A DNA stretch of 35,142 nt from a virus (lineage: Duplodnaviria > Heunggongvirae > Uroviricota > Caudoviricetes), in IMG/VR virus record IMGVR_UViG_2526164668_000014, one strand, 5' to 3'. The number at the start of each line of letters is the position of its first letter. The stretch's first letter is position 1. Positions 1,828-13,402 of the stretch are shown here, in pieces. A program made the translations under genes and the position numbers. Below the pieces are notes generated by a model. That model had not been told where the DNA came from. It ran no database searches and was given only the letters and a program-made list of their open reading frames with translations.

Positions 1828-2773
1828 ACGCCCACTGGTTATAAACACACAGCTTGCGATGAAGATTGGCTTAAATGAAGCCATTGTGTTGCAGCAGTTG
1901 CATTACTGGTTGAGAGATACCAATTCCGGCATGGAATGTGATGGTGTTCGCTGGATTTACAACACAACGGAACAATGGCTGGAACAGTTCCCATTCTGGT
2001 CAGAGTCAACGTTAAAGCGCGCGTTTGCAAGTCTGAAAACGCTGGGGCTTTTGCGTTGTGAAAAGCTCAATAAATCAAAGCGCGATATGACCAATTTCTA
2101 CACGATCAACTACGGGAGCGAGCTTTTAGATGGTGGCAAATTGAGCGAATCCATCGGTTTAAAATGCGCCGCTCCATCAGGTCAAAATGACACGATGGAA
2201 GAGGTCAAAATGAAACGCTCCATTGGTTCAAAACGACCCAATGTCATCGGGTCAAAATGGCCTGATGATCTTACAGAGAATACAACAGAGATTACTACAG
2301 AGAATAAAAACACTTTTCGTCCGGAAGCTTCGCAACCGGACCCGCAGACCGCTGAACAGGATTTTTTAACCCGGAACCCCGACGCGGTTGTGTTTAGTGC
2401 GAAAAAACGCCAGTGGGGTAGCAGGGAGGATTTGGCGTGTGCGCAGTGGATTTGGGGGCGGATCGTGAACCTTTACGAACAGGCTGCCAGCGACGATGGA
2501 GAGATCATGCGACCAAAAGAGCCTAACTGGACAGCCTGGGCCAATGACGTGCGCACAATGCGGATGCTGGATGGCAGAAGCCACAGACAAATTTGCGAAA
2601 TGTTTGGTCGGGTACAGCGAGATCAATTCTGGGTAAAAAACATCATGAGCCCGTCAAAACTCCGCGAAAAATGGGACGAACTGGTCATCCGCCTGGGACG
2701 TTCACCTGTAAAGCGTTGTGTGAATCATATTTCTGAACCGGATACAGAAATTCCGCCTGGTTTCAGGGGATAA
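1808..2773 (+). CDS. Phage replication initiation protein (O-like replisome organiser)
   Basis: Start MSLLFAERPLV overlaps the upstream gene; iteron array inside the gene as for lambda O/ori; N-terminal HTH-like region. Confidence 0.65.
   Translation: MSLLFAERPLVINTQLAMKIGLNEAIVLQQLHYWLRDTNSGMECDGVRWIYNTTEQWLEQFPFWSESTLKRAFASLKTLGLLRCEKLNKSKRDMTNFYTINYGSELLDGGKLSESIGLKCAAPSGQNDTMEEVKMKRSIGSKRPNVIGSKWPDDLTENTTEITTENKNTFRPEASQPDPQTAEQDFLTRNPDAVVFSAKKRQWGSREDLACAQWIWGRIVNLYEQAASDDGEIMRPKEPNWTAWANDVRTMRMLDGRSHRQICEMFGRVQRDQFWVKNIMSPSKLREKWDELVIRLGRSPVKRCVNHISEPDTEIPPGFRG
2156..2259. repeat. Iteron array, candidate origin of replication
   Basis: Five copies of GGT(C/T)(A/T)AAA(A/C)(T/C)G starting at 2156, 2180, 2203, 2225 and 2250 (22-25 bp spacing), followed by three ACAGAGA(A/T)TA repeats at 2270-2307. 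Confidence 0.55.
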
Positions 2774-2813
2774 GTGTTGATTTTAGGGTATAAAGTAATG
2801 TTCAGGAGGACTT

Positions 2814-3233
2814 GTGGCAAAAGTTTTTACACAAGAAGAGCGGGAAAAAATTAAAGGGCAGGTGGTGGAACTCGTACGCCAGAGTGGGCGCGAGACGTTA
2901 CGACAACTGGAAGCTAAAACTGGGGCAACAAGATATCTGATGAGCGTTCTGGCCAGAGAGCTGGTTGCCAGTGGCGATGTATACAGCTCTGGTTACGGGT
3001 TATTCCCGTCTGAACAGGCGCGTAAGGACTGGCAAAACGCCCGCAAAAAACTCTCGAGGGCAAAGGTGAAGAAACCTGCTGTGGTTGATCCGGACCTTAT
3101 CTGGTCATTACCTGACGGAGAAATACGTCGCTACGACAGTCGTCTAAACATAATCTGTCGCGAGTGCCGGAAGGCAAGGAGAAGCAGGCTATTGTTAACA
3201 TCAAGCTGTAATGTCCCCTTTGAACCATTCTAA
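2814..3233 (+). CDS. Hypothetical phage protein (GTG start); 3' end abuts the transposase insertion
   Basis: SD CAGGAGGA before GTG; 139 aa; stop lies 34 nt before the transposase ATG, so the C-terminus may be altered by the insertion. Confidence 0.5.
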   Translation: MAKVFTQEEREKIKGQVVELVRQSGRETLRQLEAKTGATRYLMSVLARELVASGDVYSSGYGLFPSEQARKDWQNARKKLSRAKVKKPAVVDPDLIWSLPDGEIRRYDSRLNIICRECRKARRSRLLLTSSCNVPFEPF

Positions 3234-4980
3234 AATGTCCCCAGACAATTCTCTGGGGGATTTTTCATGATCAAAGAGACTGTTACGATGAGTCATAAGG
3301 AACTCCACCGACTTCAGATTATTCAGGAGTCAATTAATCGACATATTACTCAGGAACAAGCTGCGGCACGCATTGGCATTTCTATTCGGCAGGTTAAACG
3401 TCTGGTGCAACGGTATAGAAATGAAGGGCCTTCTGGTCTGGTTTCCCACCGACGTGGAAAGCGTCCTAATAATTCCTTTTCTACTGAATTCAGAGCAACA
3501 GTAATTTCACTCCTCAAAGGCCGTTACGCTGATTTTGGACCTACGTTTGCGTGCGAAAAATTGCGCGAGATACACGGTTTATCTTTATCCGTTGAAACTC
3601 TCAGAAAGTGGATGATAGAAGAGGGGTTATGGCGTGAACGCCGTCGTAAAATTGCCCGTATATATCAACGCCGCATGCGACGACCATCTTACGGTGAACT
3701 GATCCAGATTGATGGCTCACCTCATGACTGGTTTGAAAATCGAGGCCCCAGATGTACACTGATCGTTTTCATTGATGATGCCACCAGTGCGTTGATGGCG
3801 TTGCGTTTTGTGCCTGCTGAAACAACCCGGGCTTACATGGAAACCCTCCGGGGTTACCTTAATGATCATGGCGTACCGCTCGCTCTCTACTCTGATAGAC
3901 ACAGTATATTCAGGGTAAATAACCCAGAGCGGGAAGGTGAGCTGACCCAGTTCACTCGTGCGATAAAGACACTGGGCATCGAGCCAATCCATGCCAACAG
4001 CCCGCAGGCAAAAGGGCGGGTAGAGCGCGCCAATCAGACACTACAGGACAGGCTGGTCAAAGAAATGTGGCTTCAGAATATCAGTGATATTGAAACAGCA
4101 AATGCATGGTTGCCGACCTTTATTGAAGCCTATAACAACCGGTTCGCTACGTCGCCTCGTACTACTGATAATGCTCATCTTGATGTGCACCATTCTGAAG
4201 AGGAACTGGGTTATATCTTCAGCCTACAGGCGAAGCGCGTTCTGTCTAAAAATCTCACTTTCCAGTACAAAAGCAGTGCGTTTCAGGTACGCAGTGAGGG
4301 CCGGGGATATCGACTTAGGCATTCGGTTGTTACTGTATGTGAGAACTTTGACGGTGAAATTAACGTTCTGTATGACGGGAAAGCGCTGGGCTGGGAAAAG
4401 TATGTTGATGGCCCGGAGCCTATACCACTGGATGATGAAAAGAGTGTCCATGAACGAGTGGATAATGCCCGTATTGATTTACGCTCAAAATACTATGTTA
4501 AATCTAAAGCTGACCATCCCTGGCCTACGCGCCGAACGCAAAGTCATCAGCAAGTTAAGCCCCCGAAGTTACCTAAAAAGAAGCCTGATCCCGATAAAAT
4601 AGATTGAAACCAAGATCGATTCGGTTGAGTGCATATCCATTCATAGGGTAGATTCTTAAGTCGCGTTTCTGGTGTTCATTTTCGGGTGGTTTGTTACTTG
4701 TTTTACCGGGGATATGCCAGAAACGCGCTGAGTCAGTCTGGGCGGTGCGCGTAATGAGGCGTTATGGTAAATAGCCTATGCTAATGTCCGCTAAGAGCAA
4801 GAAGCGGAAGTTGGCAGTTTTGTGGACTGTCCCCACAAAAGTGACTACAGAAATAGTTGCAATTCATAATTGATCATGGGTTGTCAGTTAAACTCGTGGC
4901 GATTTAAATAGACTAATTGGGAGTGCGTCCATTACTTATATCTTGTAATGTTAACTATCAGAAATGATACAAAGATAATA
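3200..4980 (+). mobile_element. Insertion sequence carrying the DDE transposase (termini not resolved)
   Basis: Transposase flanked by about 370 bp of non-coding DNA before the flxA terminator; imperfect 20-bp palindrome CCCCAGACAATTCTCTGGGG at 3239-3258. Confidence 0.35.
3267..4607 (+). CDS. DDE (rve integrase-core) transposase of a single-ORF IS (IS481/ISNCY-like)
   Basis: 446 aa; N-terminal HTH; candidate D-D-E residues in IQIDGSPHDW, YSDRHSIF and GRVERANQTLQDRL. Confidence 0.8.
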   Translation: MIKETVTMSHKELHRLQIIQESINRHITQEQAAARIGISIRQVKRLVQRYRNEGPSGLVSHRRGKRPNNSFSTEFRATVISLLKGRYADFGPTFACEKLREIHGLSLSVETLRKWMIEEGLWRERRRKIARIYQRRMRRPSYGELIQIDGSPHDWFENRGPRCTLIVFIDDATSALMALRFVPAETTRAYMETLRGYLNDHGVPLALYSDRHSIFRVNNPEREGELTQFTRAIKTLGIEPIHANSPQAKGRVERANQTLQDRLVKEMWLQNISDIETANAWLPTFIEAYNNRFATSPRTTDNAHLDVHHSEEELGYIFSLQAKRVLSKNLTFQYKSSAFQVRSEGRGYRLRHSVVTVCENFDGEINVLYDGKALGWEKYVDGPEPIPLDDEKSVHERVDNARIDLRSKYYVKSKADHPWPTRRTQSHQQVKPPKLPKKKPDPDKID

Positions 4981-5000
4981 TGTCTTTAAAGAAAAGGCTG

Positions 5001-5029
5001 ATGGCGAAAAGTGGCCCGATGAGGGCCAC
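5001..5029 (-). terminator. Rho-independent terminator downstream of flxA
   Basis: GTGGCCC-N5-GGGCCAC hairpin followed on the minus strand by a T-run. Confidence 0.55.
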
Positions 5030-5043
5030 AATACGGCTGTCAC

Positions 5044-5376
5044 TTAGACGTAAATATCAATGGTGCCAGCGGTATTTGTATCGTCTTTTTTCTCTTCTTT
5101 TTTATCAGGCTGAACTGTCGCGTCTTTATTCTTTTTCTCTGCCTGCTGCCTTAACAACTGCTCCAGTTGAGCCCTGAGGCTTTCAATTTGCTTCTGTACC
5201 AATGCAGCCATTTCTTTTTTCTGCTGTGTCGTCATCCCCTCTTCCGATGAGATTTTCCCAAGCTTTTCAGTCAGCACCTGAATTTGTCTTGTGATTTTGG
5301 CTATTTCTGATGTTCCTTCCGGGGCGGAGTTGTTTGAAATAACGGTTGAGGTATTTCCCTGAATTGTGACAGACAT
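5044..5376 (-). CDS. flxA: FlxA (flagellar-regulon protein of Qin prophage)
   Basis: 110 aa MSVTIQGNTSTVISNNSAPEG... matches remembered K-12 FlxA; SD AAGGAG. Confidence 0.9.
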   Translation of the reverse strand: MSVTIQGNTSTVISNNSAPEGTSEIAKITRQIQVLTEKLGKISSEEGMTTQQKKEMAALVQKQIESLRAQLEQLLRQQAEKKNKDATVQPDKKEEKKDDTNTAGTIDIYV

Positions 5377-5399
5377 AGATTTCTCCTTTTAAAAAAGCA

Positions 5400-5426
5400 C
5401 TATCGGCATGCACAAAAAAATCTTTA
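5400..5426 (-). promoter_or_regulatory. Sigma-28 (FliA)-type promoter for flxA
   Basis: Minus strand reads TAAAGATT-N11-GCCGATAG, 7/8 and 7/8 matches to the FliA consensus TAAAGTTT-N11-GCCGATAA, about 25 nt upstream of the ATG. Confidence 0.6.
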
Positions 5427-5871
5427 ATCGTATTTCTTGTGTCATTAATTGTTTGATGTTCAGATTGTTTTCCTCGCGGGCTGGCGCGCCTCAGAAAGTA
5501 AAGCTTGTTGACAGGGGTAAACGTTCGGCAATAATTTTCTGCCGCATGCGGGTGTTGCATAAAACGTGCTACGTTCCTTTATCGACAGGTCAGGTCACCG
5601 CTCACCCGCCGACGAGAAAGCAACACTGACATGCTAAAGCAAAAAATAGATGAATAAGTTGAGTTGTGCATATGTAGCCTGACCGTCACAAAGTATATGG
5701 TGTCTGTACCAGTAAGATGATGGCCGGACTCTTTAAAAGCGAGCTGACCTGCACAATACAGGATGGACTTAGCAATGGCTGCTCCTGGCACAAAGCGGAC
5801 AGTGATCACCGTTCTTACGACTACTTTCTGACTTCCTTCGTGACTTGCCCTAAGCATGTTGTAGTGCGATA

Positions 5872-5897
5872 CTTGTAATGACATTTGTAATTACAAG
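5872..5897. promoter_or_regulatory. relO-like operator palindrome upstream of relB
   Basis: CTTGTAAT-N10-ATTACAAG inverted repeat with TTGTAAT hexads directly upstream of the relB SD. Confidence 0.55.
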
Positions 5898-5908
5898 AGG
5901 TGTAAGAC

Positions 5909-6148
5909 ATGGGTAGCATTAACCTGCGTATTGACGATGAACTTAAAGCGCGTTCTTACGCCGCGCTTGAAAAAATGGGTGTAACTCCTTCTGAAGCGCT
6001 TCGTCTCATGCTCGAGTATATCGCTGACAATGAACGCTTGCCGTTCAAACAGACACTCCTGAGTGATGAAGATGCTGAACTTGTGGAGATAGTGAAAGAA
6101 CGGCTTCGTAATCCTAAGCCAGTACGTGTGACGCTGGATGAACTCTGA
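5909..6148 (+). CDS. relB: RelB antitoxin
   Basis: 79 aa MGSINLRIDDELKARSYA...; stop overlaps the relE start. Confidence 0.95.
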   Translation: MGSINLRIDDELKARSYAALEKMGVTPSEALRLMLEYIADNERLPFKQTLLSDEDAELVEIVKERLRNPKPVRVTLDEL

Positions 6149-6435
6149 TGGCGTATTTTCTGGATTTTGACGAGCGGGCACTAAAGGAATGGCGAAAGCT
6201 GGGCTCGACGGTACGTGAACAGTTGAAAAAGAAGCTGGTTGAAGTACTTGAGTCACCCCGGATTGAAGCAAACAAGCTCCGTGGTATGCCTGATTGTTAC
6301 AAGATTAAGCTCCGGTCTTCAGGCTATCGCCTTGTATACCAGGTTATAGACGAGAAAGTTGTCGTTTTCGTGATTTCTGTTGGGAAAAGAGAACGCTCGG
6401 AAGTATATAGCGAGGCGGTCAAACGCATTCTCTGA
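6148..6435 (+). CDS. relE: RelE mRNA-interferase toxin
   Basis: 95 aa MAYFLDFDERALKEWRKLGSTVREQLKKKL... Confidence 0.95.
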   Translation: MAYFLDFDERALKEWRKLGSTVREQLKKKLVEVLESPRIEANKLRGMPDCYKIKLRSSGYRLVYQVIDEKVVVFVISVGKRERSEVYSEAVKRIL

Positions 6436-6506
6436 ACCAAAGCATGACATCTCTGTTTCGCACCGAAGGTGACACTTCTGCTTTGCGTTGACAGGAGAAG
6501 CAGGCT

Positions 6507-6662
6507 ATGAAGCAGCAAAAGGCGATGTTAATCGCCCTGATCGTCATCTGTTTAACCGTCATAGTGACGGCACTGGTAACGAGGAAAGACCTCTGCGAGG
6601 TACGAATCCGAACCGGCCAGACGGAGGTCGCTGTCTTCACAGCTTACGAACCTGAGGAGTAA
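6507..6662 (+). CDS. hokD: HokD (RelF) Hok-family membrane toxin
   Basis: Hand-translated 51-aa ORF MKQQKAMLIALIVICLTVIVTALVTRKDLCEVRIRTGQTEVAVFTAYEPEE, below the ORF-track cutoff; Hok-family hydrophobic helix. Confidence 0.85.
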   Translation: MKQQKAMLIALIVICLTVIVTALVTRKDLCEVRIRTGQTEVAVFTAYEPEE

Positions 6663-9916: not shown

Positions 9917-10215
9917 AAAATTCCTTAATACTGATAACTTGGCGCACTATACACACGTTCCTGAAGAAAGCTATAGTTTTTTGATGGGGTTGAAGATGGC
10001 TGGATGTCTAAAATAAACATTGCTTCATATGTTCAACTATGCGTTAATGATTGCGTCGGTTTGAAGAACAGACGATATACGAAGTAGTTTACTAAAGCAG
10101 TTCTCATTTCAGGTGTTATTCACTTATTCCTTCTTTGAGTCTCTCCAATTAAGTACGAAGTCGTTTCTGTTATGCAAACCATTTATGCCGAAAGGCTCAA
10201 GTTAAGGAATGTAGA

Positions 10216-10431
10216 ATGTCAAATAAAATGACTGGTTTAGTAAAATGGTTTAACGCTGATAAAGGTTTCGGCTTTATTTCTCCTGTTGATGGTAGTAAAG
10301 ATGTGTTTGTGCATTTTTCTGCGATTCAGAATGATAATTATCGAACCTTATTTGAAGGTCAAAAGGTTACCTTCTCTATAGAGAGTGGTGCTAAAGGTCC
10401 TGCAGCAGCAAATGTCATCATTACTGATTAA
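10216..10431 (+). CDS. cspB: Cold-shock protein CspB
   Basis: 71 aa [37 protein letters not shown]...; long upstream leader typical of cold-shock genes. Confidence 0.9.
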
Positions 10432-10713
10432 AATTCATCGCTCGTCTGTATACGATAACGAAGAAGGCTGATGCCTGAGTAGAGATACGGACAGAGTAGT
10501 GAATATTGGATCTCTTTAATAAAAAGTAAGGAGGTCCAATACATGAAACAATGGCTAGCATATTTGGCAAAATCTTAATCAGGAAAAGTATGCTAACCAT
10601 TGTGGTGAAGTGCAGGTTTGCTGCATGAATAGTTTTACAGCAGAAGCTAACTGCTGGCATGGCAAAACAAAGTGCGTAAGTGGATGACTCCCACAAAAAG
10701 CACCACAATCTCA

Positions 10714-12740: not shown

Positions 12741-13101
12741 GGTAATATTAAATCGGAACATTTACATCGCGGAATGTAAAATTTGAATAAAAAGGACTCT
12801 TCCATGAGCCAAAATTCCTGAAATCTTAAGGGTAAGATAAAAGGTCTTAATCAGAATGACACGTTTTATTAATAAATAAAGCTATTCTTTCATTGCTGTG
12901 TTTTTCTTTACAAAAGTAATCCTTGCTATGGGTGGTTAATCATGCGTTAATGGTGTTCTGGTTTGTTACAAATTTATCTGAAGCAGTCATTGTTATAATT
13001 TTATTATTTGTACCTCTTGAGATTTCCTTGTTGGTTTTTCTCTCTGATATTTTTTTCGGACCATTCTGCCCAAGGGCTAATTTCTTCAAAAGGTAATAAT
13101 T

Positions 13102-13314
13102 ATGTCTAACAAAATGACTGGTTTAGTGAAATGGTTTAACCCTGAAAAAGGTTTTGGTTTCATCACGCCGAAAGATGGCAGCAAAGATGTGTTTGTCCAT
13201 TTCTCAGCAATTCAGAGCAACGATTTCAAAACATTAACTGAGAATCAGGAAGTTGAATTTGGTATTGAGAACGGACCTAAAGGTCCTGCCGCTGTTCATG
13301 TAGTGGCGCTTTGA
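13102..13314 (+). CDS. cspI: Cold-shock protein CspI
   Basis: 70 aa [37 protein letters not shown]... Confidence 0.9.
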
Positions 13315-13402
13315 GGTAGACAATATTACAAACCATATTCACTTTAGATGCCCGTGTTGTCATGGTTCCCAGTATAGAACATCATCTTTTGATGTTTCTG
13401 AC

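Follow-up and report, generated by a model that had tools for sequence, protein, structure and literature searches.

The locus considered here raises the question of what a large transposase gene is doing within a lambdoid prophage, and where the mobile unit to which it belongs begins and ends. It lies in a stretch of 35,142 nucleotides (virus record IMGVR_UViG_2526164668_000014), in the following called the window, which represents a Qin-type lambdoid prophage of Escherichia coli; strain C7 matches it at 100% identity. The initial annotation had described an insertion sequence (IS) of about 1.8 kb at positions 3190-4980, which contained a gene for a rve-type transposase of 446 amino acids (aa) and was thought to be inserted into the replication or early-right operon. 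The comparison with related loci leads to a different answer. With a probability of about 0.88, positions 3193-6493 represent a passenger-carrying transposon of the IS1202 family (ISEsa1 lineage), which was inserted at the Shine-Dalgarno sequence and start codon of the toxin gene hokD, and which belongs to a family that prefers hok start sites.

With its TGT...ACA ends, the unit has a length of 3301 bp, and a perfect 15-bp direct repeat, GGAGAAGCAGGCTAT, flanks it. It is composed of the left terminal inverted repeat (IRL, TGTTAACATCAAGCTGTAATGTCCCC), the transposase gene (tnp), flxA, ydfV, relB, relE, and the right terminal inverted repeat (IRR), which ends with ...CTTCTGCTTTGCGTTGACA. The features that define the unit and its target are the following:

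3178-3192, no strand: target-site duplication, left copy, 15 bp; exact repeat of 6494-6508, single in the empty site
3193-3218, plus strand: IRL; convergence point of 33 different left flanks
3233-3242: second AAATGTCCCC motif near IRL
3238-3259, plus strand: terminator-like hairpin with an 8-bp stem and a T-run, from a consensus scan, just upstream of the tnp start
3267-4607, plus strand: transposase, 446 aa, helix-turn-helix (HTH) followed by DDE
5909-6148, plus strand: relB, antitoxin; NCBIfam NF008412, 133 bits (cut-off 96)
6148-6435, plus strand: relE, toxin; NCBIfam TIGR02385, 54.7 bits (cut-off 27.9)
6468-6493, minus strand: IRR, GGTGACACTTCTGCTTTGCGTTGACA in the plus-strand reading; matches IRL at 18 of 26 positions
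6494-6508, no strand: target-site duplication, right copy, 15 bp; contains the Shine-Dalgarno sequence of hokD and the first two bases (AT) of its start codon
6507-6662, plus strand: hokD (relF), target gene; open reading frame (ORF) intact, separated from its own promoter and leader, downstream of relBE

The match between IRL and IRR is the sole inverted match of at least 17 positions across the 35-kb window, at a chance expectation of about 0.09. The left flanks of all copies converge on TGTTAACA(C/T)CAAGCTGTAATGTCCCC, which starts at window position 3193, and the right copy of the 15-mer follows directly after ...TTTGCGTTGACA. Convincing terminal repeats and a duplication had not been identified initially. 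A repeat search within 2700-5500 indeed yielded only inverted repeats at chance level, because the right end lies outside that span.

The empty site was found in two Qin-type prophages, L006 (STEC316) and L007 (L26), which have the same left-hand genes as the window through DUF977 and an uninterrupted hokD locus. They read ...gtgccgaaaggcaaGGAGAAGCAGGCTATGaagcag, with the 15-mer present once. The duplicated 15-mer comprises the Shine-Dalgarno stretch of hokD and the first two bases of its start codon; it is thus hokD that was hit, and not an operon for replication or early-right functions. What is missing from the empty site is the full 3301 bp and not just 1.6 kb. Of 5426 complete E. coli genomes, in which at least 80% coverage was required for a junction to be counted as present, 3696 had the uninterrupted hokD junction and 1168 had the filled right junction.

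Distant relatives also bear on the position of the right end. Simple IS of 1464-1466 bp were found in metagenome-assembled genomes of Rhabdochlamydiaceae; their transposases are 47-53% identical, and their terminal repeats match at 19 of 26 positions. They end with CAyTTCT..TTTGCGTTGACA, as the IRR does here. Three of them are flanked by perfect 15-bp duplications, and others are offset by one base, which is consistent with 16 bp. On the basis of these ends, IRR is taken to be the true right end of the family. Other candidates were discarded: the ...GCGGACA motif at 4804-4810 matches IRL poorly, has no duplication and is flanked by cargo, and a direct similarity, TGTAATGT, at 3208 and 4945 was dismissed as chance. 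No Hok ORF was found immediately past the 1.6-kb segment, and therefore a more distal end was searched for.

It is very unlikely that the element is a simple IS of about 1.6-1.8 kb (about 3190-4980) in the replication or early-right module and that flxA, ydfV and relBE are ordinary prophage neighbours. Such a view could draw on the ISfinder entry for ISEsa1, which has 1609 bp and 15/22 repeats (PMC10132070, Table 7), on the fact that all copies share 3193-4808 and diverge afterwards, and on RefSeq, in which the transposase alone is annotated as IS-derived. However, more than 170 copies were compared, and in none of them is 3193-4808 flanked by a duplication; nor does any inverted repeat or duplication bound 3190-4980. 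The reverse complement of 4785-4810 matches IRL at about 10 of 26 positions (counted by eye), compared to 18 of 26 for 6468-6493, and the junction with DUF977 on the left is a deletion joint (see below). The length of 1609 bp coincides with the insertion point of another element, ISEsa2 (IS110 family), which in many copies sits 1610 bp from IRL in the spacer of a palindromic site. Therefore, the ISfinder entry, compared here by its published length, probably ends at the ISEsa2 junction. ISEsa2 is present at the same point (about window position 4802) in L002, L013, L014, L016-L019 and L216 in spite of different flanks, which suggests that it targets this palindrome. The simple-IS reading is already contradicted by the empty-site comparison.

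The assignment of the transposase to a family is straightforward. The intact 446-aa ORF described initially was verified; it has an N-terminal HTH region (Pfam HTH_28, HTH_29 and HTH_32) and a rve_3 core, and it scores 460.8 bits with NCBIfam NF033594 "ISNCY family transposase" (cut-off 250). On identical DNA, RefSeq uses the label "IS1202-like element ISEsa1 family transposase". The signature of the IS1202 family has been described as 400-500 aa, HTH plus DDE, two additional conserved D residues that lie between the first and the second D, and a Q at E+7 (bioRxiv 10.1101/2022.12.17.520857). All of these are present, with the signature residues D149, DD170/171, D210, E253 and Q260. The ends are likewise those of the family, i.e., imperfect repeats of about 24-29 bp with TGT...ACA, and like ends were found in the relatives. 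The duplication lies within the 15-17 bp of the ISTde1-type subgroup, with 15 bp here and 15 or 16 bp in L008, L065, L216, L138, L069, L052 and the Rhabdochlamydiaceae. In contrast, an IS of this family would have 1.3-2.0 kb, a single ORF and no passengers, while this unit carries flxA, ydfV, relB and relE and others reach 12,843 bp; the term transporter IS, or transposon, suits it better. A PDB sequence search with the transposase returned only a marginal match to a retroviral integrase.

Many plasmids of Enterobacter, Klebsiella, Phytobacter, Salmonella and E. coli carry a copy with about 99% identity. The IRL...IRR unit recurs with the following lengths, duplications and sites:

L008 (pEnt261): 3307 bp, duplication GGAGAAGAAGGCCAT, in the plasmid's own hok
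L065 (CP032294): 12,843 bp, ncr and chr (nickel and chromate resistance) as cargo, the same 15-mer as L008, in a plasmid hok
L216 (p22AR0118A): 6093 bp, cytochrome b and a CDF transporter as cargo, interrupted by ISEsa2, perfect 15-bp duplication, in another hok
L138: 4237 bp, 16-bp duplication GGAGAAGAAGGCCATG, in a hok
L069: 7694 bp, 16-bp duplication, at a site without a recognisable Hok ORF
L052: 2575 bp, GGATTCACGACGGAT and GGATTCACAGCGGAT (13/15 repeat), at a non-hok chromosomal site

In the hok-located copies, the right flank codes for a Hok-family peptide. For a wider survey, IRL junctions were gathered from viral contigs as well as from genomes and metagenomes; the 174 obtained fell into 33 left-flank types when clustered at 88% identity. 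Hok start regions accounted for 21 of these. Recognisable hok leaders, each ending at the AT or ATG of hok, were present in 14 of the 21, and the rest comprised the deleted version of the window, more divergent leaders, tandem arrangements, and a copy that occupies this position in the opposite orientation (L024). Hok-type starts are likewise adjoined by elements with 78-86% protein identity (L025, L030, L053). Hence, in many hok genes of plasmids and prophages, lineage members struck one and the same position to within 1 bp, and the preference for the hok start is strong but not absolute. For the conserved left flank of the plasmid copies, which have ISKpn8 or ISSen4 upstream, an IS3-family end had also been considered; this flank proved to be the hok leader.

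In L025 (2896-2952) and L136, IRR is followed by 10-15 bp of the hok Shine-Dalgarno-ATG region and then by the IRL of a second family member, so that two elements share one hok site. A second TGT-ended element (TGTGAGTTCAAC... / ...GTGAACTTACACA) was observed within the spacer of the first palindromic site in L015 and L026. In L096 and L116 an end of the same element adjoins the same hok position, next to the hok GGAG, and this element may thus share the hok target.

Could all these copies go back to one ancient insertion into hok, which was then spread by homologous recombination among hok loci, with no target preference and with repeats that are nothing else than conserved hok sequence? The hok leaders are mutually homologous, L008 and L065 have the same flank and 15-mer with different cargo, as expected for recombination between copies, and the similarity of pEnt261 to the window extends from leader to leader. 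However, the left and right 15- or 16-mers always match each other and differ between loci (GGAGAAGCAGGCTAT, GGAGAAGAAGGCCAT(G), GGAGATGTATGGGTCC), and duplications of both 15 and 16 bp occur. The flanks are only about 70-85% identical (estimated by eye), while the elements are 91-99% identical, and therefore repeated homing fits better than one old insertion. In addition, the non-hok copy L052 has its own 13/15 repeat, L024 is inverted at the same position, the divergent elements mentioned above also adjoin hok-type starts, and the distant simple IS have 15-16-bp duplications at unrelated sites. A single old event is thus quite improbable, and repeated insertion into hok start sites is preferred.

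Several points nevertheless weigh against the proposal of a hok-seeking transposon. Twelve of the 33 flank types are not hok, and for most of these the right end is outside the sequence examined; a sequence consensus among the non-hok flanks was looked for, and none was found. The shared flanks of the L008/L065 type show that part of the spread could be due to homologous recombination, between hok loci or transposon arms, and not to fresh insertion. The sampling is skewed to plasmids of clinical Enterobacteriaceae, which often carry hok, and all claims rest on comparative sequence. Two family surveys reported no target for the ISEsa1 subgroup, and ISEsa1 itself was described without a duplication (PMC10132070). 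Lastly, the copy in the window may be inactive, because position 9 of IRL is a T, while nearly all other copies have a C, and because the transposase differs from the plasmid consensus by R268W, P413S, L420P and K445I, the first of which is near the catalytic E.

The comparison of eight units revealed a constant left arm (3193-4808, 1.6 kb, IRL and tnp), a variable middle, and a constant right arm (5781-6493, 0.7 kb), which holds the region upstream of relBE, relB, relE and IRR. Beyond 3193-4808 and 5781-6493 nothing is shared by the other copies, and the approximately 370 bp of non-coding DNA that had been noted behind the transposase gene are of two kinds: DNA of the element itself, which is conserved (4608-4808, about 200 bp), and the first part of the swappable cargo. 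The features of the middle part are:

4785-4810, no strand: palindromic site 1, TGTCCGC-N12-GCGGA(AG); end of the constant left arm
4809-5780, no strand: swappable cargo segment, here flxA and the 3' two-thirds of ydfV
5044-5376, minus strand: flxA, passenger gene; ORF list and RefSeq annotation
5579-5884, minus strand: ydfV; its 5' end overlaps the constant region upstream of relB
5776-5801, no strand: palindromic site 2, (GGCTGC)-N12-GCGGACA; start of the constant right arm

The relBE pair, an antitoxin gene of the RelB/DinJ type and an overlapping RelE/StbE toxin gene as in type II toxin-antitoxin systems, was present in the constant right arm of every copy examined, and relB was found at 95-100% identity in all 17 unit-length classes. 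The middle varies: ncr and chr in L065, cytochrome b and a CDF transporter in L216, L118 and L069, and other DNA in further copies. In at least five types of cargo the boundaries agree to the exact nucleotide, and each coincides with the imperfect palindrome GTCCGC-N12-GCGGACA (the two sites of the window, L065, L216, L118, L138 and L199). The pattern by which arms and spacers change along with the cargo resembles an exchange of cassettes by site-specific recombination, in which the crossover would fall within the spacer. The DDE transposase is the sole recombinase present in the cassette-bearing units.

We lean towards a more general picture, in which the ISEsa1 lineage consists of site-selective transposons that home to the Shine-Dalgarno sequence and start codon of hok genes. 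The fixed relBE would take over hok transcription, cassettes (metal resistance, flxA and others) would be swapped at GTCCGC-N12-GCGGACA, and the textbook relBE(F) of K-12 would be the right end of such a transposon.

On the left side the history of the locus is more complicated. The order of genes is as initially described, with the transposase gene next to the 139-aa DUF977 ORF and in front of flxA. The prophage reads DicA-like repressor, cro, a YdaT-like gene, a 339-aa O-like gene and DUF977, followed by the 446-aa ORF, flxA, ydfV, relB, relE, hokD and rem. The junction comprises these features:

2814-3233, plus strand: chimeric DUF977 ORF; codons 1-120 (2814-3173) native, last 19 codons and stop from the hok-leader remnant and IRL
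3164-3173, no strand: deletion junction with the microhomology GTGCCGGAAG; from alignment with intact DUF977 (L006, L007) and full hok leader (WG5 L005, L006)
3174-3192, plus strand: 19-bp remnant of the hokD mRNA leader, GCAAGGAGAAGCAGGCTAT; reaches the first two bases (AT) of the hokD start codon, identical to the L006/L007 leader

Intact DUF977 genes have 140 codons, Pfam DUF977 covers aa 1-122 of the window ORF, and the L006 and L007 homologues diverge from the window after 3173. Both partners of the joint carry GTGCCG(G/A)AAG, i.e., the 10-bp GTGCCGGAAG in the 3' region of DUF977 and GTGCCGAAAG in the hok leader. Strain WG5 and Shigella L023 keep about 100 bp or more of the hok leader to the left of IRL. 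According to these alignments, a deletion later than the insertion removed the 3' end of DUF977, the intervening DNA, and the hok promoter and leader, and fused DUF977 via the 10-bp microhomology to the last 19 bp of the leader. It is because of this deletion, and not because of the insertion, that the transposase appears in the replication module. The suspected damage to the replication operon is thus real in so far as DUF977 lacks its last 20 codons, the only loss on the replication side; its cause, however, is the separate event at GTGCCGGAAG. A helicase-loader or nin gene had been expected here, and none is present at this place in the related prophages L006 and L007, where the order is O-like gene, DUF977, variable cargo, hokD and rem.

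Between DUF977 and hokD, L006 (6255-7742) encodes a Sll1717-family P-loop ATPase, and L007 (6190-8765) an SMEK-domain protein, a methyltransferase and a hypothetical gene. This interval looks like a variable, possibly defence-related hotspot.

The hokD ORF has remained intact, with 19 bp of its leader, while the locus is complete in the empty-site prophages. An intact hok locus would have a leader of about 170 nt with a mok/Sok-target region and its own promoter, which is not the case in the window. A terminator scan between relE and hokD predicted none, and co-transcription of relBEF has been reported (PMC5120126). A promoter scan of the intact hokD locus yielded a candidate hok promoter and found no sok promoter. 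It has been stated that a relBE of plasmid origin was integrated into hokD and shortened the ancestral frame, with no mechanism given (PMC6379469, citing Ramisetty & Santhosh 2016). Within the literature collection searched, IS1202 and hok did not occur in one paper, and among the papers listed for ISEsa1 no link to relB, relE or hok was made.

K-12 lacks everything to the left of window position 4423 and has kept ydfW, flxA, ydfV, relBE, IRR and the right duplication. Its ydfW represents the last 49 codons of the transposase gene (window 4461-4607; 2536-2685 in the C600 locus L215), and its ydfX is a truncated YdaT-like gene that was joined to the transposase fragment by a deletion. In strain C7, RefSeq flags the transposase (L001 6568-7638, identical to the window) as a pseudogene "missing C-terminus" in spite of the intact 446-codon ORF; plasmid annotations give this ORF as intact. 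The flag was set by PGAP in C7 only because the K-12 designation ydfW is also retained there for the 49 codons at the end. Many E. coli copies lack 27 bp in frame at 3328-3354 in the HTH region, between the short direct repeats 3315-3327 and 3342-3354; the units with this deletion, e.g., in WG5, have 3274 bp.

The initial annotation had regarded the transposase gene as part of a true mobile element, and this view has stood. It is extremely improbable that the gene was domesticated, became fixed in a prophage lineage and is no longer mobile. Its presence at the same locus in 785 E. coli genomes, the IRL point change and four amino-acid changes of this copy, and the many strains with the 27-bp in-frame deletion or larger ones could be read in this way. 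However, empty sites are common, near-identical plasmid copies with other duplications exist in other genera, and frequent truncation, as in K-12, argues for decay rather than selection. The prophage copies look like decaying ones and the plasmid copies like recent ones.

For a transposon with these ends and this target, a pathway can be proposed, in which the chemistry and the basis of the hok targeting are conjectural. The transposase would bind the 26-bp terminal repeats (TGT...ACA) and the nearby ATGTCC-type motifs, of which two are present near each end, and it would pair IRL and IRR. Additional binding sites have been described for the IS1202 family (Harmer & Hall), and they match the paired ATGTCC motifs. 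Staggered cuts 15-16 bp apart across the hok Shine-Dalgarno-ATG region would then allow insertion of the whole unit, in the orientation in which relBE reads out through IRR into hokD. The hok ORF would retain a Shine-Dalgarno sequence and an ATG, since the right copy of the duplication supplies them again. It would lose its own promoter, the coupling to mok and the Sok target, and would become the third gene of the relBE operon, yielding the relB-relE-hokD arrangement. The hairpin at 3238-3259 would probably block read-in from the hok promoter.

Elsewhere in the window, the remnant of an IS3-type transposase (123 aa; rve, rve_2, rve_3) was observed at 7-378, at the left edge and upstream of the prophage repressor gene. 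An Rfam scan of the window yielded only two cspA-type thermoregulator RNAs above the gathering threshold, at 10055-10447 and 12957-13341 in the region of the prophage cold-shock genes, and no match to a Sok or hok RNA family.

With the proposed transposon, the arrangement in K-12 gains a mechanistic origin: the relB-relE-hokD operon, hokD without its mok/Sok control region, and the transposase fragment ydfW. The ISEsa1 subgroup, for which neither duplication nor target had been reported, is here found with a 15-16-bp duplication and a preferred target, and its reference entry is seemingly a fragment. A transposon that homes to the toxin gene of another addiction system while it brings its own would be a new case in which mobile elements are in conflict or cooperate with one another. 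Genes for nickel and chromate resistance and for cation efflux travel on this backbone among plasmids of Enterobacteriaceae, and its true limits matter for annotation and for the tracking of resistance islands.

In comparison with known systems, the nearest one is ISEsa1 of Cronobacter sakazakii (ISNCY, IS1202 group), which has the same transposase lineage and a length of 1609 bp, compared to 1610 bp for the left part here. It was published with 15/22 repeats, no duplication or target and a transposase of 439 aa (PMC10132070), while the units described here have 3.3-12.8 kb, 18/26 repeats, a 15-16-bp duplication, relBE and cargo, a preference for hok, and a transposase of 446 aa. The ISTde1 subgroup, with its duplications of 15-17 bp, shares HTH and DDE, the extra DD, the Q at E+7, the TGT...ACA ends and the long duplication. 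However, its members are single-gene IS of 1.3-1.7 kb without target preference, whereas the element here has passengers and is site-selective. ISAjo2 and ISAba32 represent a further subgroup of the same family, in which a single transposase likewise achieves strict and oriented targeting without Tn7-like helpers; they insert 5 bp from the XerC side of pdif/dif sites with 5-bp duplications, in contrast to the hok Shine-Dalgarno/ATG region and 15-16 bp. In transporter IS (ISKpn21, ISShal2) and ISEcp1-type units, too, an IS transposase mobilises adjacent passengers between a fixed and a distal end, but here the distal end is a true conserved IRR and not a surrogate, relBE is constant, and the cargo is swapped at two palindromes. 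Tn7, which inserts at attTn7 downstream of glmS, is also site-selective for a conserved and widespread "safe" site, and Harmer & Hall modelled the IS1202-family transposase on TnsB. In contrast to Tn7, proteins like TnsA, TnsC or TnsD are lacking here, the target itself is mobile, since hok is carried by plasmids and by prophages, and its expression is rewired upon insertion. Thus, the kind of element is known, namely the IS1202 family, and what is new is a cargo-carrying unit with relBE that prefers hok start sites.

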